DNA of 64,000 bases, from positions 27,589 to 91,588 of IMG/VR virus record IMGVR_UViG_3300017987_000009; one strand, 5' to 3'. The notes beneath the pieces were generated by a model that worked only from the letters and a program-made list of their open reading frames with translations, did no database searches and was not told the origin of the DNA. Position numbers and translations under genes: made by a program. Each line of letters opens with the position of its first letter. The first letter of the stretch is position 1. This DNA comes from a virus. Positions 46,570 through 64,000 of the stretch are shown piece after piece.

Positions 46570-46761
46570 GTGACGAACGAGGAGCGGAGGAACAGGGTTA
46601 GGCGCCGGCAGCGGGCGCGGGAGCGCGAGGACGCGCGGCAGCTGTCGACGACTGAGGTCGAGCGCATGGTGAGCGACGCCGCGATCGCGGCCGAGCTGTT
46701 CGGCGAGGACGGCCTCGAGGGGTTCGCCGCGGCGCTGCGGCGGGAGAGGAGGCGGGCGTGA
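46570..46761 (+). CDS. Hypothetical protein
   Basis: GACAAGGAGG RBS before GTG 46570. Confidence 0.55.
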   Translation: MTNEERRNRVRRRQRAREREDARQLSTTEVERMVSDAAIAAELFGEDGLEGFAAALRRERRRA

Positions 46762-47453
46762 GGGCGGTCGGCTACATCCGAGTGAGCACCGACGAGCAGG
46801 CCGAGCACGGCGTCGGCGTGGAGGCGCAGCGAGACAGGATCGCCGCGTACGCGCGCCTGTACGACCTCGAGCTCGTCAACGTGCTCGTCGACGAGGGCGT
46901 CAGCGGGTCGGCGGCCGAGAGGCCGGGGCTCCGCATGGCGACCAACGCGCTAGAGGACGGGCACGCGGAGGCGCTGGTCGTGGCGAAGCTAGACCGCCTC
47001 ACCAGGTCGCTCCCCCACCTGCTGTCGCTGATCGACGAGTACTTCGGGGAGCGGTTCACGCTGCTGAGCGTCGCCGAGCAGCTCGACCCGCGCACGGCGA
47101 GCGGCCGCCTGGTGATGAACATCCTGGGCGCGGTGGCGCAGTGGGAGCGCGAGACGATCAGCGAGCGGACCAAGGCCGCGCTCGCGTTCAAGCGGTCGCA
47201 GGGCGAGTACACGGGCGGCGGCGTGCCGTTCGGGTTCCGCCTCGACCACGCAGGGCGGCTGCGCCGCAACATGTGGGAGGCGCGCGCGATCGACGAGGCG
47301 CGGGCGCACGCCGGCCGCGGCCTGTCGCTGCGGCAGATTGGGCGCGCCCTCGAGGCCGACGGGTTCTTCCCCCGCGCGAGCGGGAGGTGGAGGGCGAAGC
47401 AGGTGTCGCGCCTGCTTCGCGAGGACAACCACGAGACAAGGAGGCTAGGATGA
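46758..47453 (+). CDS. Serine recombinase (resolvase family, short recombinase C-domain)
   Basis: GYIRVSTDEQ catalytic Ser, DEGVSG..RPGL, KLDRLTRS, AQWERETISERTK, PFGF. Confidence 0.93.
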   Translation: MRAVGYIRVSTDEQAEHGVGVEAQRDRIAAYARLYDLELVNVLVDEGVSGSAAERPGLRMATNALEDGHAEALVVAKLDRLTRSLPHLLSLIDEYFGERFTLLSVAEQLDPRTASGRLVMNILGAVAQWERETISERTKAALAFKRSQGEYTGGGVPFGFRLDHAGRLRRNMWEARAIDEARAHAGRGLSLRQIGRALEADGFFPRASGRWRAKQVSRLLREDNHETRRLG

Positions 47454-53330: not shown

Positions 53331-54842
53331 GTGCGCGGCGCGGAGGTCATACCCCTCGTGCGGGGGGCGGCGAAGAAGCTCGACAAGCTGGAGCGGTCGC
53401 AGCTCGAGACCGTCTACGAGCAGTACCGCACCGCCTCCAACGAGTGGCTGCGCCGCCAGATCGTAGAGAACAACCGGATCGACATCCTCGCGAGCGTGGT
53501 CCTGGGCTACGACGTCGAGCCCTTCCACCTCGCGATGATGCAGTGGCAGTTCCTCCACCCCGAGTCGCTGCAGCTCTCGTTCCGCGGCGGCGGCAAGACG
53601 ACGGTCTGCACCGTCGCCAAGGCGATCCACTACCTGTGCAAGAACCGCGACCTCCACATCCTGCTCGCGTCGGAGAGCAAGGGCACGGCGTCCGGGTTTC
53701 TTCGGGAGATCAAGGGCCACCTCGAGGGGAACGAGCGGCTGATCGAGGTGTTCGGCCCGTTCTACGACCCGAAGGTCGTGGCGAAGTGGGACACCTACGA
53801 GATCGACGTCGTCGGCAAGGCGACCGGCTCGAAGGAGGCGAGCGTCACCTGCATCGGCGTCGACGCGTCCATCACGTCCAAGCACTTCGAGGTCGCGCTG
53901 ACGGACGACCTGGTCGTGGAGAAGAACAGCCGCACCGAGGCGACGCGCGAGCAGGTAAAGAACTGGTTCTACCACACGTACACGCCGCTAATCATGCCGC
54001 CGCGCCCGGGCGTCGAGCACTGCGGCGAGCACCACATCCTCGGCACGCGCCAGTGCCCGGAGGACCTGTACGAGCACCTCCAGGAGAACGAGCTCAAGGA
54101 GCACGCCCAGACGATCCCCGCGCTGGACGAGCGCGAGAACTCGCCGTACCCGAAGCTGTACCCGCCGGCGTTCTTCAAGAAGCAGCGGCGGAAGATGGGC
54201 GTGCTGCGGTTCGGCGCGCAGTACCAGCAGGACGTCGAGGCGATGCGCGGCGAGGTGTTCCAGCACAACGACTGCATCCAGCTCGACGCCGAGGAGTACC
54301 CCGCGCTCACGCGGCTCAAGGTCTACATGGGCGTGGACATGGCGGTCGGCGACAAGGAGAAGAACGACTTCTTCGCGATCTCCGTCGTCGGCATCCTGGG
54401 CTCGATCCGCAAGGACGACTTCTTCTCGTACCTGCTGGACTACTACCTCGAGCACCTTCGCGCGTCGCGGCAGGAGGCGAAGGTGCTCGAGTTCTACGAC
54501 AAGTGGAAGCCGCTGCGGACCGGGGTCGAGATCAACCAGTACCAGGACATCCTGCGGCAGACGCTGAAGGAGAAGCGGCCGGGTATGGTGGTCTATCCGA
54601 TTCATACGCAGCTCGACAAGACTACGCGCGCCTGGAAGCTGGCGCCGCTCGTCGAGGGCCACCGCATGTTCTTCCTCGGAGACGGCGTCCACGCGCGGCC
54701 GATCGACCACCTCGTGAGGTTCCCCAACGGCAGGGGGACGAAGGACTACTTCGACTCGCTGGACAACGCGATCCGCGCGGCGCGGCGGAAGGCCGGCCGC
54801 AAGCGGCCGGAGCGGAAGAAGTTCGGACTGATAGGAGGCTAG
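53331..54842 (+). CDS. terL: Terminase large subunit
   Basis: FRGGGKTT Walker A, ALTDD Walker B, GTR coupling motif, F..QYQQ, MGVDMA and DYFDS nuclease aspartates; precedes portal. Confidence 0.92.
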   Translation: MRGAEVIPLVRGAAKKLDKLERSQLETVYEQYRTASNEWLRRQIVENNRIDILASVVLGYDVEPFHLAMMQWQFLHPESLQLSFRGGGKTTVCTVAKAIHYLCKNRDLHILLASESKGTASGFLREIKGHLEGNERLIEVFGPFYDPKVVAKWDTYEIDVVGKATGSKEASVTCIGVDASITSKHFEVALTDDLVVEKNSRTEATREQVKNWFYHTYTPLIMPPRPGVEHCGEHHILGTRQCPEDLYEHLQENELKEHAQTIPALDERENSPYPKLYPPAFFKKQRRKMGVLRFGAQYQQDVEAMRGEVFQHNDCIQLDAEEYPALTRLKVYMGVDMAVGDKEKNDFFAISVVGILGSIRKDDFFSYLLDYYLEHLRASRQEAKVLEFYDKWKPLRTGVEINQYQDILRQTLKEKRPGMVVYPIHTQLDKTTRAWKLAPLVEGHRMFFLGDGVHARPIDHLVRFPNGRGTKDYFDSLDNAIRAARRKAGRKRPERKKFGLIGG

Positions 54843-54846
54843 GGAC

Positions 54847-56592
54847 ATGGGAGAAGAGTCACAGGCCAAGACGATCGTGGCGCCGTCGCCGCGCCTGCCG
54901 AAGCTGCGCGCGCTCGTGATCCAGGCGCCGGTCGAGAAGCAGGCCGGCGAGGAGTACGGCGAGTCGAAGCAGGTCCCGGACGAGGACCCCTGGTCCGACC
55001 TGATCTCAAAGGGCCGGGTCATCAGCCCGCCGTTCGACCTGTTCGTCCTCACGACGATGACCGAGACGAACAGCGAGCTAGGCCCTTGCGTCGACGCGAT
55101 GGAGAAGAACATCGACGGCTTCGGCCACCGCCTCGTCGCCCGCGTCGAGGCCAAGAAGGCGCCGGCCGGCGTGGTGGAGCGGGTCGCCGCCGAGAAGGTC
55201 CGGCTGAAGAACTTCTTCCTGTACGCGGGCATGAAGGACTCGTTCCGCGCGCTGCGCCGCAAGACGCGCCGCGACATCGAGGCGACGGGCAACGGGTACT
55301 GGGAGGTGGTGCGCGGCGCCGACGGCAAGGTCCAGTACTTCAAGCACATGCGGTCCTACCAGGTCAGGCTCACGCCGCTGGAGGAGCGGTCGGTCCTGGT
55401 CGAGATGCCGATCCTCGAGATTCGCGAGGGCGGCGGGCTGGCCATCGAGAGGATCAAGGTGCGCGAGCGGTTCCGCAAGTTCGTGCAGGTGAGCTCGGTG
55501 ATCCGCACGAGGTCGACCCAGACTGCCGGCTTCAAGAAGCGGTGGTTCAAGGAGTTCGGCGACCCGCGCGTCTACGACTGCGAGACCGGCGAGCTCGTGC
55601 CGAAGAAGGACCTCGCCGACTTCCCGGAGGCGAAGCGGGCCAACGAGGTCGTCCACTGGAAGATCTACTCGACGCGCTCGCCGTACGGCCTGCCGCGCTA
55701 CATCGGCGCGCTGCTAGACATGTTCGGCGACCGCAAGGCCAGCGAGGTCAACTACGTCACGTTCTGCAACAACAACATCCCGAGCATGGTCATCGCCGTC
55801 GCCAACGGCCAGCTGACGCAGGACACCGTCGACCGGGTCACCGAGTTCATCGAGAAGCTGCAGGGCGACGACAACCGCAGCAAGGTCCTGGTCATCGAGG
55901 CGGAGTCGACGGGCGAGGAGGGGGAGGACAGCGGCCACATCAAGATCGACATCAAGCCGATGACGTCGGAGCAGATCAAGGACGCGCTGTTCCAGAACTA
56001 CTCGAGGAGCGCGCGCGAGAAGGTGCGAGTGTCGTACCGGCTGCCGCCGATCTTCGTCGGCAGGTCGGAGGACTACACGCGCGCGACGGCCGACACGTCG
56101 AGGCGCCTCGCCGACGAGCAGGTGTTCGCGCCGGAGCGGGACGACTTCGACGACTGGATCAACCGGATCCTGTTCCCCGAGATGGGCGTGCTGTACCACG
56201 ACTACAAGTCGAACAGCCCCAACACGACGGACAACTCCGAGCTGGTGAGGATCCTGGCCGGCGCGGAGAAGACGGGCGGCATGACGCCGCGGCGCGCCGA
56301 TCTGATCCTCGCAGACATCCTCGGCCAGGACCTGCCGGACTTCGCGGAGGACGAGCGGTTCAACCTCGACCTGCCGTTCAGCCTGTCGATGGCGGAGGCC
56401 GTCAAGAACCAGGGCGACGCGGCGGAGGTCGGGCAGTCGGTGACCGCGCTCAAGCGGCTGGCCGGGCTGATGGGCCCGGACACCGCGCCGGCGGACGTCG
56501 TCAAGACGCTGCTCGAGATCCGCGGGCGGTTCGCGGCCGCCCTCGAGGAGGAGGCCGCGCTGGAGCACGACGAGGGACGCGAGGAGGAGTAG
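54847..56592 (+). CDS. Portal protein (PBSX-like)
   Basis: DIEATGNGYWEV.R, ANEVVHWK...YGLPRYI, F.NN.IP, YRLPPIFVG..DYTRATA. Confidence 0.9.
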   Translation: MGEESQAKTIVAPSPRLPKLRALVIQAPVEKQAGEEYGESKQVPDEDPWSDLISKGRVISPPFDLFVLTTMTETNSELGPCVDAMEKNIDGFGHRLVARVEAKKAPAGVVERVAAEKVRLKNFFLYAGMKDSFRALRRKTRRDIEATGNGYWEVVRGADGKVQYFKHMRSYQVRLTPLEERSVLVEMPILEIREGGGLAIERIKVRERFRKFVQVSSVIRTRSTQTAGFKKRWFKEFGDPRVYDCETGELVPKKDLADFPEAKRANEVVHWKIYSTRSPYGLPRYIGALLDMFGDRKASEVNYVTFCNNNIPSMVIAVANGQLTQDTVDRVTEFIEKLQGDDNRSKVLVIEAESTGEEGEDSGHIKIDIKPMTSEQIKDALFQNYSRSAREKVRVSYRLPPIFVGRSEDYTRATADTSRRLADEQVFAPERDDFDDWINRILFPEMGVLYHDYKSNSPNTTDNSELVRILAGAEKTGGMTPRRADLILADILGQDLPDFAEDERFNLDLPFSLSMAEAVKNQGDAAEVGQSVTALKRLAGLMGPDTAPADVVKTLLEIRGRFAAALEEEAALEHDEGREEE

Positions 56593-56595
56593 CGG

Positions 56596-59500
56596 GTGTT
56601 CCGGGCGCAGCACATCGACCTGCTGTACGACGGCCTGCACGCGGCGGACGACATCGTGTTCAAGGCGCTGAGGGTCGACGAGCAGGCGCAGACCGCCGCG
56701 ATCGAGACGAGGCTGCGGCGGTTCGTCGCCGCGCAGTGGGCCGACCTCGCGCGGCAGGCGGCGCGACAGGCGTCCGAGATGCTGGCGCGCGGGCCCGGCG
56801 ACACGGTCCGCGCCGGCGACGTCGGCCGCGCGCTGGCCGTGGTCGACCGGACGATGGAGCAGTGGCCAGGGCGCGTGACCGACAGGTTCCTTGCCGACAT
56901 GCGCGAGGCCTACCGCCTCGCCCGCCAGTCGGGCTTCGACAGGGCGATGCGCACGGTGGAAGCCGAGCTGCGGTACGACACGCCCAAGCTCCCCGACCAG
57001 ACAGTCGAGAAGTACGTGCCGAAGAAGCCGATGCAGGCGACGGTCAAGGTCTCGTTCGACCTTGTCGACGAGGCGGCGCTCGACGCGTTCGACGACCACC
57101 AGGTGTTCTGGATCGGCCAGCACTACAAGGGCAACGTCTCGCCGACGATCGCGGCCGCGGCGAAGGAACAGGTCAAGGCGGGGATGGGCCGCGTCGCCGC
57201 CGGCAAGGAGATGCGGAAGCTGGTCGAGGCGGGCCTCGCCAACGTCTCGGTGCCTGGCGGGTTCCGCGGCACGGCGACCTCGTACTTCGAGGGGCTTGTC
57301 GCCAACGCCACGACGGTCGCGCGCGCGACCGGCCACCTGCGATCGTTCGAGAAGGTCGGGCACAACAAGTACACCGTCGTCAACCCCGGCGACCACCGGA
57401 CCTGCGAGACGTGCAACCTCCTGGACGGCAAGGAGTTCTACACCAAGGACGGCGCCGCGCTGGTGGGCAAGGTCGTCGGCGCGAAGTCCCCGCTGGGCGT
57501 CAAGAAGGTCCAGCCGTTCCTGGCGCCGGCCAAGGCCCGCGCGCTGACCGGCGGCAAGGTCGGGCCCGCCGGCCCTGAGAAGACCGGCGCGCTGGTCAAG
57601 TCGGGCAACGCGCTGCCGCCGTTCCACCTCAAGTGCCGGTGCGACGTCGACATCACGAAGGACGAGATGCTGCTGCCGTTCGAGACGGACATCGGCGGCG
57701 GGCCGAAGGTGCAGACGCCGGTGTTCAGCCCCGCGCTCCTCGAGTCCAAGGCGAAGCAGCTCGCGAAGCCCAAGAAGGTGCCGAAGCCGACGCCGAAGCC
57801 GAAGGCCGCGCCCGTCATGGAGAAGCCGCCACCGCCGACCGCGCCGGTCAGCCCCGAGGACAGCGTCGCCGTCGTCGGCAAGTCGGAGTTCCCCTGGGAG
57901 GCGAGACAGCTGAAGCGGACGAGCAGGGTCTTCGAGGGCGCGCACCGCAAGTGGTCGTACAAGGCGCCCGACGGGAGCGAGTGGCTGTTCAAGCCGGTCA
58001 GCGAGGAGTTCCGCGCGTACGGCGACGAGGTCGCGTACCGGCTCGGCAGGGAGCTGCAGGTGCCGCAAGCCAGGCTGCACGTCGTCACGATCGACGGGCA
58101 GACGGGCTCGATCCAGCGGCTGTTCAAGAACGTGACCGGCGACCTCAAGGCCGGCGGCGGCGTCCCGATCGAGTCGCTGACCAAGCGGCAGGCCGCGATA
58201 GTCCAGCGGGAGCACGCGTTCGACTGGCTGATCGGCAACCACGACGGCCACGGCAAGAACCTCCTCCTGATGAAGGACGGCGAGATCCGCGGCATCGACA
58301 AGGGCCAGCTGTTCAAGTTCTACGACAAGGACAAGATCGCCTTCACGTACAACCCGAACAAGGCCGGCTTCGGCGAGGTCTCGTACTACAACCAGCAGTT
58401 CGAGCGGTACGCGAAGGGCGAGATCCGCCCTTCCTGGGGACTCGACTTCAACGTGGGCGAACTGCAGGGGTTCCTGAAGCGGGTTGAGGACATGCCGGAG
58501 GAGGACTTCCTCGCGATGCTCCGGCCGTACAGCTCGCGCGCGGCGAAGTCGAAGGTCGGGCCGTTCGCCAAGTGGAGCGAGAAGCGGTTCCTCGACGCGG
58601 CGCTAAGGCGGAAGCGCGGCCTGCGCAAGACGCTCGAGAAGTTCTACGACGACCTCGAGAAGGCCAGGCGCGAGGCGGCGCCCGCCGTGCGCGAGGTCGC
58701 CGAGGCGGCGCCGGGCAAGGCGGTCACGCCGGTCAACGCGGAGCTAGTGCGCGACGTGCGCAAGGCGGGCTGGGCCGGCAAGGCGGTGCACGTCGCCGGC
58801 GAGGACTACGAGGGGATGCAGTTCCTGACGTACGGCACGAACCGGCGGACGATCCTCGAGACGAAGCTGCGGCCGGTCGGCGACGAGAAGCTCCTCGCCT
58901 TCGCGCGCCGCGCGCTGGGCTCGGAGGTGCAGTCGTCCGCCGACGAGGCGTGGGCCGGCATAGAGCGCACGATGAAGTCTATCAACTTCCACCTCGGGCC
59001 CGGGGGCGACGGGAAGCTGCCGAAGGACACGAAGAAGTGGATCAAGTACCTGTCGGAGAGCTACGTCAAGATGCCGGAGGGCCAGGTCTCCGCCGGCAGC
59101 CTTGAGCAGTTCAGGTACTACAAGAAGGAGCTGTCGCGAGTCATCGGCTCCAACAACAACGTGAAGAAGGCTGGCGTCGGGTACCGTATCCAGAAGTGGA
59201 AGGCGCGGCCGCAGAAGATCGCGAACCTGCCGGCTGGCGCGCCGAAGGTGACGCGCGTGTCGACGTTCGACGAGGGCGCGAAGGCGCTGCGCGCCGGCGA
59301 GATATTCGAGGAGGCCGGCGTCGGCAACCAGTTCAGCGGCGAGGTGTACGAGATCGACTTCGGCAAGGGGGTCAAGGCCGTGTACGTCCGGCACGGCGAC
59401 GGCAACAAGTTCAGCAAGCAGGGCAAGCTGCGGCTCGTCGTCGAGAAGGGCGTGGACAAGGTCGCGGCGAGGGACATCCAGAACGCCGTCGACCAGCTGG

Positions 59501-60342
59501 AGAGGCTGGGACTCGGGTCGAAGCTGGCCGACAAGGACGACCTCGAGCTGCTGTACCTGGTCAAGGTCGCGCGCGCCGCCGGGCACGAGAAGGCCGGCAA
59601 GGCGGCGTTCTTGTTCAACCCGGCCGAGTCCACGCAGAAGAACATCAAGCGGATGAAGGCCGCGTGGGAGAAGAGCCTGAAGAAGAAATTGACCAAGGCG
59701 GCCGGCTACGAGCCGATCCCGACGTCGGAGTTCCTCGACGGCACCGGCTGGAACCGCTGGTACCGGTTCGACGTCGACGTCGACAAGCTGATCAAGGACG
59801 ACGTCGGCCTGTACCACAGCCTGTACGGAGGCGGAACCGACGGGCTCGAGGCGATCCTGAAGGGCAAGACCGGCGCCCTCATCTCCACGGAGGAGAAGTA
59901 CCGGATCGGCATAGTGCCGAAGGGCCTGTCGCCCGGGCGGGACCAGAGCACCGGCGGCGCAAGCTTCACGTTCACCCGGCTGCGCACGTCGGAGAACGCG
60001 GAGGGCGCGCTGCGTTTTCACCCGGGGATCCTGCGCGACCCGGACGCGATCGTCTACCGCTCTGACGAGTTCGGCAACGTGAAGGAGTCCGTCATCAACT
60101 ACAAGCGCCAGTTCGGCCAGGCCAAGATAGCGGACATCGCGAAGCGCGGCCGCGCTAACAACGAGACCATATTCAAGAACTCGATCAGTCTCGAGCGGTG
60201 GCTAGACGAGGTGAAGGTGACGAACGAGTGGGAGCGCAGGCGCGTCGTCGGCTGGTTCAAGGACGCCGGCATCACGCGGGTAGGGCCGAACCGCAAGCCG
60301 ATCGAGGACGCTGTCGTGACTACGCGCACGAGGCTGAAGTGA
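56596..60342 (+). CDS. MuF/SPP1-gp7-like head protein with long C-terminal extension (kinase-like + unknown effector domain)
   Basis: After portal; DHRTCETC...LDGKEF and PPFHLKCRC MuF motifs; Pro/Lys linker; WLFKP...EVAYRL...GSIQ...FDWLIGNHDGHGKN...GIDKG kinase-like motifs. Confidence 0.85.
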   Translation: MFRAQHIDLLYDGLHAADDIVFKALRVDEQAQTAAIETRLRRFVAAQWADLARQAARQASEMLARGPGDTVRAGDVGRALAVVDRTMEQWPGRVTDRFLADMREAYRLARQSGFDRAMRTVEAELRYDTPKLPDQTVEKYVPKKPMQATVKVSFDLVDEAALDAFDDHQVFWIGQHYKGNVSPTIAAAAKEQVKAGMGRVAAGKEMRKLVEAGLANVSVPGGFRGTATSYFEGLVANATTVARATGHLRSFEKVGHNKYTVVNPGDHRTCETCNLLDGKEFYTKDGAALVGKVVGAKSPLGVKKVQPFLAPAKARALTGGKVGPAGPEKTGALVKSGNALPPFHLKCRCDVDITKDEMLLPFETDIGGGPKVQTPVFSPALLESKAKQLAKPKKVPKPTPKPKAAPVMEKPPPPTAPVSPEDSVAVVGKSEFPWEARQLKRTSRVFEGAHRKWSYKAPDGSEWLFKPVSEEFRAYGDEVAYRLGRELQVPQARLHVVTIDGQTGSIQRLFKNVTGDLKAGGGVPIESLTKRQAAIVQREHAFDWLIGNHDGHGKNLLLMKDGEIRGIDKGQLFKFYDKDKIAFTYNPNKAGFGEVSYYNQQFERYAKGEIRPSWGLDFNVGELQGFLKRVEDMPEEDFLAMLRPYSSRAAKSKVGPFAKWSEKRFLDAALRRKRGLRKTLEKFYDDLEKARREAAPAVREVAEAAPGKAVTPVNAELVRDVRKAGWAGKAVHVAGEDYEGMQFLTYGTNRRTILETKLRPVGDEKLLAFARRALGSEVQSSADEAWAGIERTMKSINFHLGPGGDGKLPKDTKKWIKYLSESYVKMPEGQVSAGSLEQFRYYKKELSRVIGSNNNVKKAGVGYRIQKWKARPQKIANLPAGAPKVTRVSTFDEGAKALRAGEIFEEAGVGNQFSGEVYEIDFGKGVKAVYVRHGDGNKFSKQGKLRLVVEKGVDKVAARDIQNAVDQLERLGLGSKLADKDDLELLYLVKVARAAGHEKAGKAAFLFNPAESTQKNIKRMKAAWEKSLKKKLTKAAGYEPIPTSEFLDGTGWNRWYRFDVDVDKLIKDDVGLYHSLYGGGTDGLEAILKGKTGALISTEEKYRIGIVPKGLSPGRDQSTGGASFTFTRLRTSENAEGALRFHPGILRDPDAIVYRSDEFGNVKESVINYKRQFGQAKIADIAKRGRANNETIFKNSISLERWLDEVKVTNEWERRRVVGWFKDAGITRVGPNRKPIEDAVVTTRTRLK

Positions 60343-60352
60343 GGAGGGACCG

Positions 60353-61102
60353 GTGCCAGACCTGACTAGCTTGAGGGACTTCATTGCCGACCTCGGCGTT
60401 GTCGCCGTGTCGGAGGAGTGGTACGACAGACACGGACTGCGCCGCGACCCGCCCGGGTCGATCTCCTGGGTGCCGGTTGTCAACTACATATCGCAGGGCG
60501 ACGTGTTCGCCTACGTCGGCACCAGCGACGGCCTGCCGCATGCGGTGTGGGTGGAGCGCGTCGACCGCGACGGCGACGAGTGGGTGCTGCGTGTCGCGCC
60601 CGACGAGGACGCCGGCGAGCGGCTCGTCGTGCGGGTGTCGCCGCCGGAGCCGGGCCACCGCGACGAGGCGAAGGCCTGGATCGAGCTGCGCGACGAGGGC
60701 GGAGTCGGGACCGAGCTGAAGGCGTTGCACGAGGACTTGACAGCCAACCCGCCGCGCAAGCCGAGGCTCGGCCCGGAGCGCAAGTACCGGGCGGTCCTGG
60801 TCCACGCGATGCGCAACGACACCGGCGAGCTGTTCACGGCCGGCGCGATCGCGTACGGGCACGGCGAGATCGTCGCCGAGGCGTACCCTGGCGTCGAGTC
60901 CGTCGCCGACATGTGGAACAGGAGGATCGGGCTCGCTACCGTGCGGCCCGAGGAGTTCGTAGGGAACTGGCTCGAGCGCGTCAACGGGATCACCGAGGAG
61001 CTGTCGCCGGTGTTCGAGACGGCCGGCGTCGACGCGAGGGACGCGGCGCGGGCTGCGCTCGCCGGGGCGAACGCGAGGCGCGACATGGTAATCAGCGTGT
61101 GA
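60353..61102 (+). CDS. Hypothetical acidic protein, candidate immunity partner of the MuF effector
   Basis: Directly downstream of MuF with GAGGAGG RBS; role inferred from position only. Confidence 0.5.
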   Translation: MPDLTSLRDFIADLGVVAVSEEWYDRHGLRRDPPGSISWVPVVNYISQGDVFAYVGTSDGLPHAVWVERVDRDGDEWVLRVAPDEDAGERLVVRVSPPEPGHRDEAKAWIELRDEGGVGTELKALHEDLTANPPRKPRLGPERKYRAVLVHAMRNDTGELFTAGAIAYGHGEIVAEAYPGVESVADMWNRRIGLATVRPEEFVGNWLERVNGITEELSPVFETAGVDARDAARAALAGANARRDMVISV

Positions 61103-61113
61103 GGAGGACCGAC

Positions 61114-62691
61114 ATGGCCGACACCAACGCACAGAAGGCGATAACCTCCGGGGCCGGCGGGAAGCTCGAGCCGGCGCAGGGCCTGCCCGGCCGACGACGC
61201 CGCCGGCCGCGGCCGCGCGTCGCCGCCCCGTCGCCGAAGCCGATCGAGGCCAAGACCGAGGAGATCCCGGCCGACGGGCTGGTCGTGACGCCGCCCAAGC
61301 TCGCCAAGGCCATCGTCGCCGGCGAGGCGACGATGCTAGTCAAGTCTCGCCCGCTCGACGTGCCGGCCGGCGAGTACGTGCTGCTCAGCCTGCGGCGGGC
61401 GGTCGGCGTCGTGAAGGTCGGCGAGCGCGTCGAGCTGACCGACGAGCAGTTCGCCCAGCGCGAGGCGGAGCACGGCATCTCTGCGGCGGACCGCGAGGAG
61501 TGGGCGGAGGCGCAGCCGTCGTGGAGCGAGGGCCCGCTGTGGGCGTGGCCCGTCAAGCTGGTCGAGAAGTTCGACGAGCCCAGGGCGACCGACGCGGAGC
61601 CCGGCGCCCATACCGTGGTGCGCGGCGTCGAGGTCGAGCAGGTCGAGAAGATCCAGGACGTCGAGACATACGACCCGAAGGACGCGAGCGACGCCGTCCT
61701 GCGAGACGACTTCCGGATCCTGCTCGCGTGGTACGCGTCGTGGAAGAAGGACCCCGAGGGGTTCGAGCATGGCCTCGAGACGATCGAGACGCTGCTCCGC
61801 AAGGTGCTGAAGGAGCTCGTGCGCCGCGGCAAGGACGTGATCCAGTTCAACCCCCGTGGGATGAAGTCGAGCGTGCGGCAGTTCTTCCTGCAGGTCGCGC
61901 GCGACGTGAAGGTCCCGGAGGAGATGTTCAAGGCGCTCGGCCTCGAGACCGGCACCGACCCCGAGGGGCTGACCGATGCCGAGCTGGTCGCCGCGCACTG
62001 GGACCTGCACCAGATGTACGACAGGGAGCGGTGGACGCAGACGGGCGTGAAGGGCTGGAGCACGGAGGACATCGTCAACCTCCACGCGCGCGTCGTCGAC
62101 GAGCTGCTTGAGCGGAGCAAGGTCGAGCACCCGCCGCCGCCGGACAACGGGCTCGACGAGCTCAGCGCCGACTTTGAGCGGAACGCCGAGAAGCAGCCGG
62201 CTTACCACAAGCGGCCGACCGAGAAGGCGGAGCGGGAGTACGCGACGATCCACCGGTCGGGCGTGAAGCGAGGCGAGAAGATAACGCTGGCCGACGTGCT
62301 GCCGCACCTCAAGACCTTCAAGGCCCGCAAGCCGTACGTCTACCTGGTTGGCGGGCTTGCGAACCACGGCGAGACTGAGGGCGACGTCGACATCCTGGTC
62401 AACGACATGGAGGACGCGCCCGACTGGCTGAAGGACGTGATTCACTTCCGGCTCGGCCGCTCGCTGCCCGGCGAGATCGCTGAGCGGCTGGACATCCACT
62501 TCGACCGCGACCGCGGGCCGTTCACCAACTTCGTCGAGCTGTACGACCTGGTGCTGGAGAGGGTGAACCTCGAGGACGAGGTCAAGCTGATGGCCGTCGG
62601 CGAGAAGCGGAGCGAGAAGGACCCGCCTAACCTGCTGCGGTCGATCGAGGAGCTCGGCGCCTTCGTTCGACGAGGGACAGCCGGTGCCTGA
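61114..62691 (+). CDS. Multidomain protein: ASCH/PUA-like N-terminus, helical middle, C-terminal pol-beta-type nucleotidyltransferase
   Basis: AIVAGEATMLVKSR...LWAWPV; VYLVGGLANHGETEGDVDILV (hG[G/S]..DxD); start ATG 61114 after GAGGAGG. Confidence 0.65.
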   Translation: MADTNAQKAITSGAGGKLEPAQGLPGRRRRRPRPRVAAPSPKPIEAKTEEIPADGLVVTPPKLAKAIVAGEATMLVKSRPLDVPAGEYVLLSLRRAVGVVKVGERVELTDEQFAQREAEHGISAADREEWAEAQPSWSEGPLWAWPVKLVEKFDEPRATDAEPGAHTVVRGVEVEQVEKIQDVETYDPKDASDAVLRDDFRILLAWYASWKKDPEGFEHGLETIETLLRKVLKELVRRGKDVIQFNPRGMKSSVRQFFLQVARDVKVPEEMFKALGLETGTDPEGLTDAELVAAHWDLHQMYDRERWTQTGVKGWSTEDIVNLHARVVDELLERSKVEHPPPPDNGLDELSADFERNAEKQPAYHKRPTEKAEREYATIHRSGVKRGEKITLADVLPHLKTFKARKPYVYLVGGLANHGETEGDVDILVNDMEDAPDWLKDVIHFRLGRSLPGEIAERLDIHFDRDRGPFTNFVELYDLVLERVNLEDEVKLMAVGEKRSEKDPPNLLRSIEELGAFVRRGTAGA

Positions 62692-63064
62692 GAAGCTGCC
62701 GCAGCTCGCGCTTGTCGCGCTTTGTGTCGTGCTCCCACAGGACGACGACGGACCAGCCCGCCTGCCGGAGCTGGCGCGTGACGCGGCGGTCGCGCCTGCG
62801 GTTGTTCGCCAACTTGAGGGTCCAGAAGTCGCGGTTCGACTTCGGGAGGCGGTAGTGCCGCGGGCACCCGCGCCAGAAGCAGCCGTGGACGAAGACGGCG
62901 ACACGGCGCCTCGGAAGCGCGAAGTCTGGCCGCCCGGGCAGGTCCGGCGAGTTCCGGGTCGGCCGGAAGCCAAGCGAGCGCAGGGCGGCGTCCACGGCCA
63001 GCTCCGGGGCGAGCCGGTCGCCGCGGATCCGGGCCATCAGCCGGGACCGCTCCTCGCGGGTCAC
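62627..63064 (-). CDS. vsr: Very-short-patch repair endonuclease Vsr (start uncertain)
   Basis: ERSRLMARIR...PE...LPGRPDF...AVFVHGCFWRGC...PKSN..FW..KL..N..RD...L...GW....WE; the only clear minus-strand gene. Confidence 0.88.
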   Translation of the reverse strand: MTREERSRLMARIRGDRLAPELAVDAALRSLGFRPTRNSPDLPGRPDFALPRRRVAVFVHGCFWRGCPRHYRLPKSNRDFWTLKLANNRRRDRRVTRQLRQAGWSVVVLWEHDTKRDKRELRQLLRHRLSLVERRRRAPRSTAAG

Positions 63065-63296
63065 GGTGCGCCTCCGGGGCGCCCGGAAGGCGCCGGCGCG
63101 GAAACCGGCCCGGCCGGACGGCCGATTTGGCGCCTCGGGCGCCCATATCGCGCCCGTGTCCGCCGGGAGGCGCCGGGCCCGCCGGTTTGGCTTGCCCCGG
63201 AAACCGGGGGCGACACGGGCGGTTCTGGGACGAAACTCGACACGGGCCACGATTATGCCCGTACTGTGACTTGAAGTACACGCGACGGAGGACGAG

Positions 63297-64000
63297 ATGG
63301 GACGGAAGACGATTGACGTGTTCTGCGGGATCGGCGGCCTGACGCTGGGCTTCGAGCGTGGCGCCGGGACCGAGACAGTCGTGGCGATGGAGGCCGAGAT
63401 CCACGCGGCGCGGACCTTCGCCTTGAACCACTCGAAGACGGCCCTCCTGTTCGGGGACTGCCGGAGGTACGCGCCAGCCTCGATCAAGGAGAACGTCGGC
63501 GACGTCGAGGGCGTGGTCGGCGAGGTGCCGTGCGAGCCGTTCTCCCGGGCTCGCCGCCTGGACTACTCGCGCACCGACCCGCGGCGGAACCTGATCAACT
63601 ACGCGCTGAAGCTGGTTTCGACTTTCCAGCCGAAGTTCTTCTGCTTCGAGAACGTGTGGGGCGCGCCGGACAGCCCGTCGTGGAAGAAAGCGCGCTCGCG
63701 GATCTCGAAGGCCGGCTACGGCGTGAACGTGTGGAAGCTGAACGCCGCGGAGCACGGGTCGCCGCAGGCCCGCAAGCGCGCGTTTCTAGTCGGCGTGAAG
63801 GGGTACACCGGCGAGCTCGCGCCGCCGGCCGCCGTCGACGGCGCGCAGAAGTCCGTGACCGACGCGTGGAAGGGTCTCGGCGAGCCGAAGGAGGGCGGCG
63901 ACCCGATGCACCCGCCGATGAAGGACTTGCCGACCAACGTCAAGAACGCGATCAAGAAGGGGAAGCCCGGCGACGGGCTGGCGAACCACGTGCCCGCTGC
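63297..64000 (+). CDS. DNA (cytosine-5) methyltransferase, runs off the window end (not in ORF track)
   Basis: Translation from ATG 63297 gives IDVFCGIGG (motif I), VPCEPFS (IV), FENV (VI), PQARKRAF (VIII); GGAGG RBS. Confidence 0.92.
   Translation, partial: MGRKTIDVFCGIGGLTLGFERGAGTETVVAMEAEIHAARTFALNHSKTALLFGDCRRYAPASIKENVGDVEGVVGEVPCEPFSRARRLDYSRTDPRRNLINYALKLVSTFQPKFFCFENVWGAPDSPSWKKARSRISKAGYGVNVWKLNAAEHGSPQARKRAFLVGVKGYTGELAPPAAVDGAQKSVTDAWKGLGEPKEGGDPMHPPMKDLPTNVKNAIKKGKPGDGLANHVPA

Follow-up and report, generated by a model that had tools for sequence, protein, structure and literature searches.

A phage MuF-type head protein joining an atypical kinase and a DarT-like ADP-ribosyltransferase-fold domain

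Phage T4 Alt, which is packed in the capsid, is the classic injected ADP-ribosyltransferase (ART), and phage T7 gp0.7 is an early protein kinase that rewires host proteins. Here we describe a gene whose product joins an atypical kinase and an ART-fold domain to a MuF-type head module. The gene is the open reading frame (ORF) 56596-60342, numbered on a window of 64,000 nucleotides that forms the final 64 kb of the 91,588-bp IMG/VR virus record IMGVR_UViG_3300017987_000009. Its product is probably a "polyvalent" effector packed in the virion, with a cognate inhibitor or chaperone encoded by the following gene, 60353-61102. T4 Alt and T7 gp0.7 differ from it in being separate proteins of other enzyme families; moreover, Alt enters the capsid by a capsid-targeting peptide and not by MuF, and gp0.7 is not packaged.

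Head-packed MuF-fused effectors, multi-domain polyvalent proteins, MuF-fused ARTs and polyvalent-protein kinases have all been described in published work (PMC5512222, PMC9503650, PMC5576092). Iyer et al. (PMC5512222, PMC9503650) predict that such effectors are packed in the head and then injected, with ARTs as the most frequent enzymes among them and kinases also on record. The window protein resembles these polyvalent proteins in that several effector enzymes share one polypeptide, tied to MuF and encoded beside the portal and terminase: MuF, kinase and ART lie in a single ORF within the head module. The kinases in these papers have lost the C-lobe and belong to phages of Verrucomicrobia, Chlamydia and Bacteroidetes, whereas the window kinase is a complete PI4KII/HipA/CtkA-like domain. 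In the passages searched, neither of these two papers mentions a fixed cassette of kinase, middle domain and ART accompanied by two partner genes, and no description of a kinase-middle-DarT-like cassette with partner genes was found in the literature, as far as searched.

The MuF polymorphic toxins of Jamet et al. (2017; PMC5576092) and the Bxa-Bsi-BAH system of a Bacteroides stercoris prophage (PMC11699363) share with the window locus a head-type N-terminus, a C-terminal enzyme and small downstream genes; in the known systems the enzyme is toxic and the genes are protective, and both may be so here. The toxin Bxa is an ART, and Bsi neutralises it by binding, which provides a binding-type immunity protein for a MuF-family ART (PMC11699363). 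Unlike these toxins, the window protein has a conserved C-terminal part with two enzymes, and the locus has no immunity protein of the hydrolase type (BAH, macrodomain, NADAR). DarT of the DarTG systems (PF14487; PDB 7omu, 7omv, 7yk3, 8baq; PMC11543638) belongs to a chromosomal toxin-antitoxin pair, whereas the window ART is part of a phage head-protein fusion, carries an extra N-terminal subdomain of ~145 residues, and has neither a sequence match to DarT nor a DarG or NADAR neighbour.

The kinase recurs in the mycobacteriophage "minor capsid and ADP-ribosyltransferase fusion" (McProf/prophiFSQJ01-1 gp54; Aikoy gp15), in which the same kinase-like domain lies upstream of a C-terminal ART. The window kinase is 28-31% identical to those of the fusions (E 1e-16 to 1e-27), which are encoded at L003:2651-6163 (prophiFSQJ01-1 gp54) and L004:3551-7573 (Aikoy gp15). 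In McProf-type prophages (gp53/54/56) the fusion gene follows the portal, and Aikoy gp15 is located two genes upstream of the terminase. However, the ART of these fusions is of the R-S-E type (ADPrib_exo_Tox, C3/VIP2-like) and has no sequence relation to the DarT-like domain, and their middle regions and downstream genes also differ from those of the window cassette. The pairing of the same kinase with two unrelated ART families suggests that the two chemistries cooperate.

The head module and the atypical kinase

The domains of the protein and the genes to which the text refers are the following.
53331..54842, + strand: large terminase (PHROG 38 terminase large subunit, E 2e-64; Pfam Terminase_6C)
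54847..56592, + strand: portal (Pfam Phage_portal, 45.9 bits, over the cut-off; PHROG 12, E 8e-30)
56596..57690, + strand: MuF / SPP1-gp7-type minor head module, residues 1-365 (Pfam core 194-351; CETC and HLKCRC motifs)
57691..57900, + strand: Pro/Lys-rich linker, residues ~366-435, seen in the translation (poorly aligned, of varying length among homologues)
57901..58683, + strand: atypical kinase domain of the PI3/4K-HipA-CtkA-Fam20 group, residues 436-696
58684..59307, + strand: helical connector and middle alpha/beta domain, residues 697-904 (predicted local distance difference test, pLDDT, mostly 65-95)
59308..59745, + strand: N-terminal subdomain of the C-terminal unit, residues 905-1050, a small beta-sheet with helices
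59746..60342, + strand: DarT-like ART-fold domain, residues 1051-1248 and stop codon, with H1074, F1124-F1126 and E1190
60353..61102, + strand: partner gene, 249 aa (third-position G+C, GC3, 0.92; ribosome-binding site, RBS, GAGGAGGG)
46656..47453: serine recombinase of the resolvase family, 265 aa (127.7 bits)

ORF 56596-60342 begins with GTG and encodes 1248 aa; its GC3 of 0.96 and the upstream RBS GAGGAGGAG mark it as coding. The portal stop lies 3 nt ahead of it, and the gene order in the head module is terminase, portal and this ORF. The initial annotation had described the product as a MuF head protein with a HipA/PI3-4-kinase-like domain and a second effector domain, and every motif that it quoted is present in the translation. 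The MuF motifs CETC and PPFHLKCRC end at residue ~351 (nt ~57648), in agreement with the boundary near 57640 proposed there. Pfam Phage_Mu_F (PF04233) gives a sub-threshold, full-length match (24.2 bits, with the cut-off at 29.6; E 6e-5; positions 12-111 of the 112 in the hidden Markov model), and relatives of the same architecture score 50-77 bits. In addition, the PHROG minor head protein families 595, 115, 2841 and 4728 are matched (E 5e-7 to 1e-3).

Behind the linker, the kinase domain contains the motifs WLFKP, GSIQ, DWLIGNHDGHGKN and IDKG. Weak Pfam matches to HipA_C (E 3.8e-4, 20.6-24.2 bits against a cut-off of 30.5) and PI3_PI4_kinase (E 0.12, 12.7-14.3 bits against 27.1) lie at the loop from DWLIGNHDGHGKN to IDKG. 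As both scores stay under the cut-offs, the domain is a superfamily-level relative and not a HipA toxin. HipA toxin proper was rejected, the score being under the family threshold and no HipB-like partner being detected. The AlphaFold model of the kinase-bearing half (pLDDT 85.7) shows a two-lobe, protein-kinase-like fold nearest to the HipA and PI3-PI4 atypical kinases. Structure comparison placed PI4KIIalpha first (score 15.8; root-mean-square deviation 3.6 Å over 221 aligned residues), followed by H. pylori CtkA (14.3), Fam20 (13.0), MavQ (11.9) and HipA/HipT (10.8-11.2), and Foldseek returned the same families. A search of the kinase profile against the sequences of solved structures gave low-complexity helical matches and nothing meaningful.

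The catalytic positions were counted in 167 aligned sequences. The ATP-binding K466 is invariant (159/159), the catalytic-loop D550 is found in 161/167 and the metal-binding D568 in 162/167; H552 is present in 142, and position 555 is N in 81 and Q in 65. The kinase looks intact and may well be active. The catalytic loop reads HDGHGKN, with G after the Asp, as the initial annotation had noted in pointing to a G that replaces the usual R. E. coli HipA has the same G-after-Asp arrangement in its loop. A long C-terminal extension does follow the kinase; its length, first put at about 650 residues, is ~550 from the kinase end (~residue 696) and ~680 from the IDKG motif.

The C-terminal ART unit

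The extension opens with the helical connector and the middle domain, whose length (~200 aa) is conserved in relatives. In the fold searches, matches to the kinase and the ART took up the hit lists, and no fold was assigned to this middle domain or to subdomain 905-1050. The C-terminal unit that follows contains the motifs LYHSL, LIS, GGASFTFTRL and NNETIF, and its AlphaFold model (residues 905-1248, 51 sequences) reached a pLDDT of 89.0 and a predicted template modelling score of 0.87. Both modelled halves are therefore confident, one matching kinases and the other ARTs. Foldseek ranked DarT first, with a probability of 0.98-1.0. Among solved folds, those of DarT1/DarT2, which modify DNA bases, and of the RNA 2'-phosphotransferase Tpt1 come nearest; in the structure comparison, DarT was followed by Tpt1 (6.9), SopF (6.1) and OspC3/CteC/CopC (5.2), all of the ART superfamily. 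In the viral model library BFVD, the nearest models are giant-virus proteins, iridovirus 422L and baculovirus ORF32/ORF30.

Residue counts from 156 representatives reveal strong conservation around a putative active site. H1074 is kept in 136/156, E1190 in all 154 aligned sequences, an aromatic residue at position 1124 in 144/156 (Y in 135) and F1126 in 148/156; in addition, R1103 (151/156), D1116 (156/156) and R1128 (151/156) are conserved. In model numbering, H1074 ends the strand 167-170, Y/F1124 starts the strand 220-226 and E1190 starts the strand 286-290. The triad has the H-Y-E layout, its equivalence with DarT being drawn from residue order and strand position. The loose likeness to ARTs proposed at first is borne out by the DarT-like fold and the conserved H...aromatic...E triad.

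Sequence comparison gives a different picture. The Pfam DarT model (PF14487) has no match in the genome at E<=10; among the 51 C-terminal units no Pfam family was found, and the DarT model touches one of them, at E 0.16. In an hhalign comparison of the ART profile with five DarTs from actinobacterial genomes, the probability was 0.4%, and only NETIF was aligned with the AEFLV strand of DarT. A sequence search with the whole protein against solved structures found no match, the ART profile found OT3 (7uek) alone, weakly, and the neighbours of the ART domain in the Protein Atlas are unnamed or at chance level. A DarT-like fold without membership by sequence leaves this ART family without a name. 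No DarG macrodomain or NADAR is located beside the ART, and the downstream proteins have no Pfam family.

The subdomain 905-1050 (~145 residues) is always found upstream of the ART domain. Together the two also make up stand-alone proteins of ~315-450 residues, representatives of ~220-280 residues cover mainly the ART, and the unit is likewise found with other N-terminal modules. Among 50,697 phage records, the only tblastn match to the ART unit is Pan1 gp15 of a Pseudanabaena phage (L005:3120-5903), which is annotated as a head morphogenesis protein and has MuF; the kinase region had no match in it in a whole-protein tblastn. Pan1 gp15 might serve as a cultured model of this unit.

The kinship of the fold with DNA-modifying enzymes raises the idea that the domain ADP-ribosylates nucleic acid, either host DNA, which would stop replication, or the incoming DNA of the phage or its ends, which would shield them, working alongside a capsid-linked methyltransferase-ligase-protease protein encoded two genes downstream. 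We regard this as unlikely. The nearest solved folds, DarT1/DarT2 and Tpt1, speak for it, and so do the nearest viral models, from giant viruses, iridoviruses and baculoviruses: Iyer et al. 2022 (PMC9503650) connect DarT with an ORF28 family that is found in baculoviruses, ascoviruses and iridoviruses and to which these models may belong. Moreover, the (near-)invariant R1057, D1059, R1103, D1116 and R1128 recall the phosphate-binding R35/R52/D54 of DarT1 (PMC11543638). However, a substrate cannot be read off from likeness of fold, no similarity to DarT was found at the sequence level, the residue equivalences again rest on order and strand position in a model, and the accompanying kinase has no known role in DNA ADP-ribosylation.

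A fixed cassette and its downstream partner

The kinase-middle-ART block (~800 residues) is present in 77 IMG/VR loci. Four full-length homologues are 42-59% identical to the window protein. In 56 of the 77 loci the ORFs could be delimited, at about 960 to 2,700 codons; each of them holds a stretch matching residues ~440-1242, and nearly all terminate with it. An exhaustive search with residues 700-1248 gave 692 cluster representatives at E<=1e-3, 74 of them at E<=1e-30, and of 155 representatives bearing the ART, 105 also carry the kinase. These relatives, whose contigs range from 46 to 67% G+C, keep the domains in the same order and at similar lengths. An assembly fusion, which the initial annotation had wished to see checked in the reads, was rejected, as the same architecture recurs on dozens of independent contigs. 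One relative of 2679 residues (L081:2799-10835) has a NUDIX domain upstream of the kinase-like domain, predicted to be a further effector domain added to the same protein.

The block is accordingly a fixed cassette, unlike the exchangeable tip of a polymorphic toxin. The first proposal had placed the protein in the polymorphic-toxin framework; in its classical form, a MuF toxin released at lysis or borne by particles would kill competitors, and 60353-61102 would be an immunity gene protecting the lysogen. The MuF N-terminus, the toxin-like C-terminal enzymes and the conserved small downstream genes agree with such a toxin, as do the model of Jamet et al. 2017 (PMC5576092) and the Bxa/Bsi example (PMC11699363). 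However, the cassette is fixed across hundreds of protein clusters and is not exchanged among close relatives, so that no variable C-terminal toxin is seen. In addition, relatives matching the kinase patterns used occur in just 2 genomes, both bacterial, of the 185,579 species scanned, which suggests that the lineage is rarely a prophage. A further point comes from the genome itself: the first 123 bases of the record recur at its end, and this terminal repeat indicates a complete, circularly assembled genome of ~91.5 kb, across which no tyrosine integrase was found, only the small serine recombinase of 265 aa. For these reasons a polymorphic toxin is improbable here.

The small gene 60353-61102, proposed at first as a candidate immunity gene, is a real gene, with its GC3 and RBS marking it as coding, and belongs to a conserved set of partners. 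A small gene immediately follows the big ORF in 50 of the 53 loci with enough sequence, commonly with an ATGA stop/start overlap. In 43 of these 50 it belongs to a family of ~160 residues and in 7 (8 counting the window) to the family of 60353-61102, whose orthologues stand directly after the big gene in L006, L014, L007, L008, L011 and L009. The two families share a weak hhalign match in an H...P...W region (E 0.0023, probability 12.7%). A second small gene (~105-120 residues) follows in 45 loci. In its N-terminal half, the 249-residue product resembles the first small partner, and its C-terminal half (A3 columns 145-222) matches the separate second ORF of L007/L008/L011 (E 2.3e-7), so the two partners appear fused in the window phage, L006 and L014. 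Between this C-terminal half and the second-partner family of the 45 loci, only weak chained matches were obtained. The product and its relatives have no Pfam or PHROG family, macrodomain or NADAR, and the Protein Atlas neighbours of the product are unnamed or at chance level.

The partner gene is co-directional with the big ORF in every locus but L048 (47% G+C), in which a gene for the ~160-aa partner (E 2e-11) lies on the - strand, 8-505 nt downstream of the big ORF.

The tight and conserved coupling fits a cognate inhibitor or a chaperone, a reading that draws on the parallel with Bsi and the MuF-family ART Bxa (PMC11699363). The enzyme domains could instead be structural pseudoenzymes of the head/portal region, with the downstream gene an assembly factor. 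Such a role would agree with MuF proteins being structural and with the absence of a toxin-antitoxin signature in the partner. Against this, it is precisely the catalytic residues that are near-invariant in both domains over more than 150 divergent sequences, and the ART unit also stands alone (~220-450 aa) or follows other N-terminal modules. Pseudoenzymes are thus a very improbable explanation.

Neighbouring genes and the proposed role

The genome has a G+C content of 68%, with nearly every gene on the + strand. Its terminase is at most 25% identical to that of any deposited phage, and no close cultured relative is evident.

An uninterrupted ORF of 1341 codons spans the circular junction (window 63297-64000, continued at the contig start, L001:2-3445) and combines a C5 cytosine DNA methyltransferase, an ATP-dependent DNA ligase and a C-terminal XkdF-type head protease. 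L006 and L009 have ORFs of similar design with a Dam-type N6-adenine methyltransferase, and L018 and L033 show the methyltransferase only. The junction-spanning ORF appears to encode another polyvalent protein tied to the capsid and recalls P1 DarB. Between it and the partner gene, ORF 61114-62691 (525 aa), which has no Pfam family, shares homology with the N-terminal portions of the giant ORFs for methyltransferase and protease in L006 and L009; in the window phage it seems to have been split off from that protein. A GG...DVD stretch towards the end of this ORF is similar to a nucleotidyltransferase motif. A Vsr very-short-patch repair endonuclease (62627-63487, - strand, Pfam 69 bits) is the sole minus-strand gene of its region and lies immediately before the Dcm-type methyltransferase. 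The Dcm-Vsr pair appears to have taken the place of the Dam-type domain of the relatives.

Methyltransferase, ATP-dependent ligase and XkdF protease are joined here and in L009, and in L006 without a ligase match. Such giant neighbours add to the points in favour of an action on nucleic acid. In a wider form of that idea, the kinase and the DarT-like transferase would be a single nucleic-acid machine at DNA entry, partnered by the methyltransferase-ligase-protease and silenced by the two small proteins; its actions might include, for instance, ADP-ribosylation of host DNA, or a capping or marking of the phage DNA as it enters. This is a speculative and quite unlikely proposal. If true, it would mean virion-delivered DNA ADP-ribosylation used for phage attack, a mirror image of the bacterial DarTG defence.

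The reading that we favour remains the virion-packed polyvalent effector with its cognate partner. The MuF module would carry the protein into the procapsid beside the portal, and the capsid delivery suggested at first is plausible from the position and family of the gene. Behind the flexible Pro/Lys linker, the fixed ~800-residue cassette would present an active atypical kinase (PI4KII/HipA/CtkA-like), the middle domain and an active ART of the H-Y-E class whose fold is nearest to the DNA-modifying DarT enzymes. The protein would leave the capsid together with the DNA and, very early in infection, would phosphorylate and ADP-ribosylate host targets, protein or nucleic acid, serving to take over the cell or to blunt its defences. 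The product of 60353-61102 would most likely bind the cassette and keep it inactive, or chaperone it, during late synthesis. The framework for this proposal is provided by the head-packaged MuF-fused effectors and ARTs described in PMC5512222 and PMC9503650.

Several points weigh against this proposal. The MuF score of the window protein lies under the curated Pfam cut-off. The ART shows no sequence similarity to DarT, in hhalign and Pfam alike, and its target may therefore be nucleic acid or protein. The partner, for which neither a fold nor a family is recognisable, might act as an assembly factor and not as an inhibitor. Moreover, the partner-family profiles found nothing beside Pan1 gp15 or in an Actinomadura locus.

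The concept of head-packed enzyme cargo is already known (Iyer 2017, 2022; Jamet 2017), and within this known kind of phage system the window locus represents a widespread variant, its membership being well supported. Head-packed enzymes act ahead of phage gene expression and so decide whether an infection passes the host defences. The kinase and DarT-like cassette is among the more widespread of such cargoes, its residues 700-1248 matching hundreds of clusters at 50% identity in phages of 46-67% GC, and no Pfam family covers either enzyme or the partner proteins. Identification of the targets would reveal a new route by which phages take over or disarm cells, and might also reveal DNA ADP-ribosylation by phages instead of against them.

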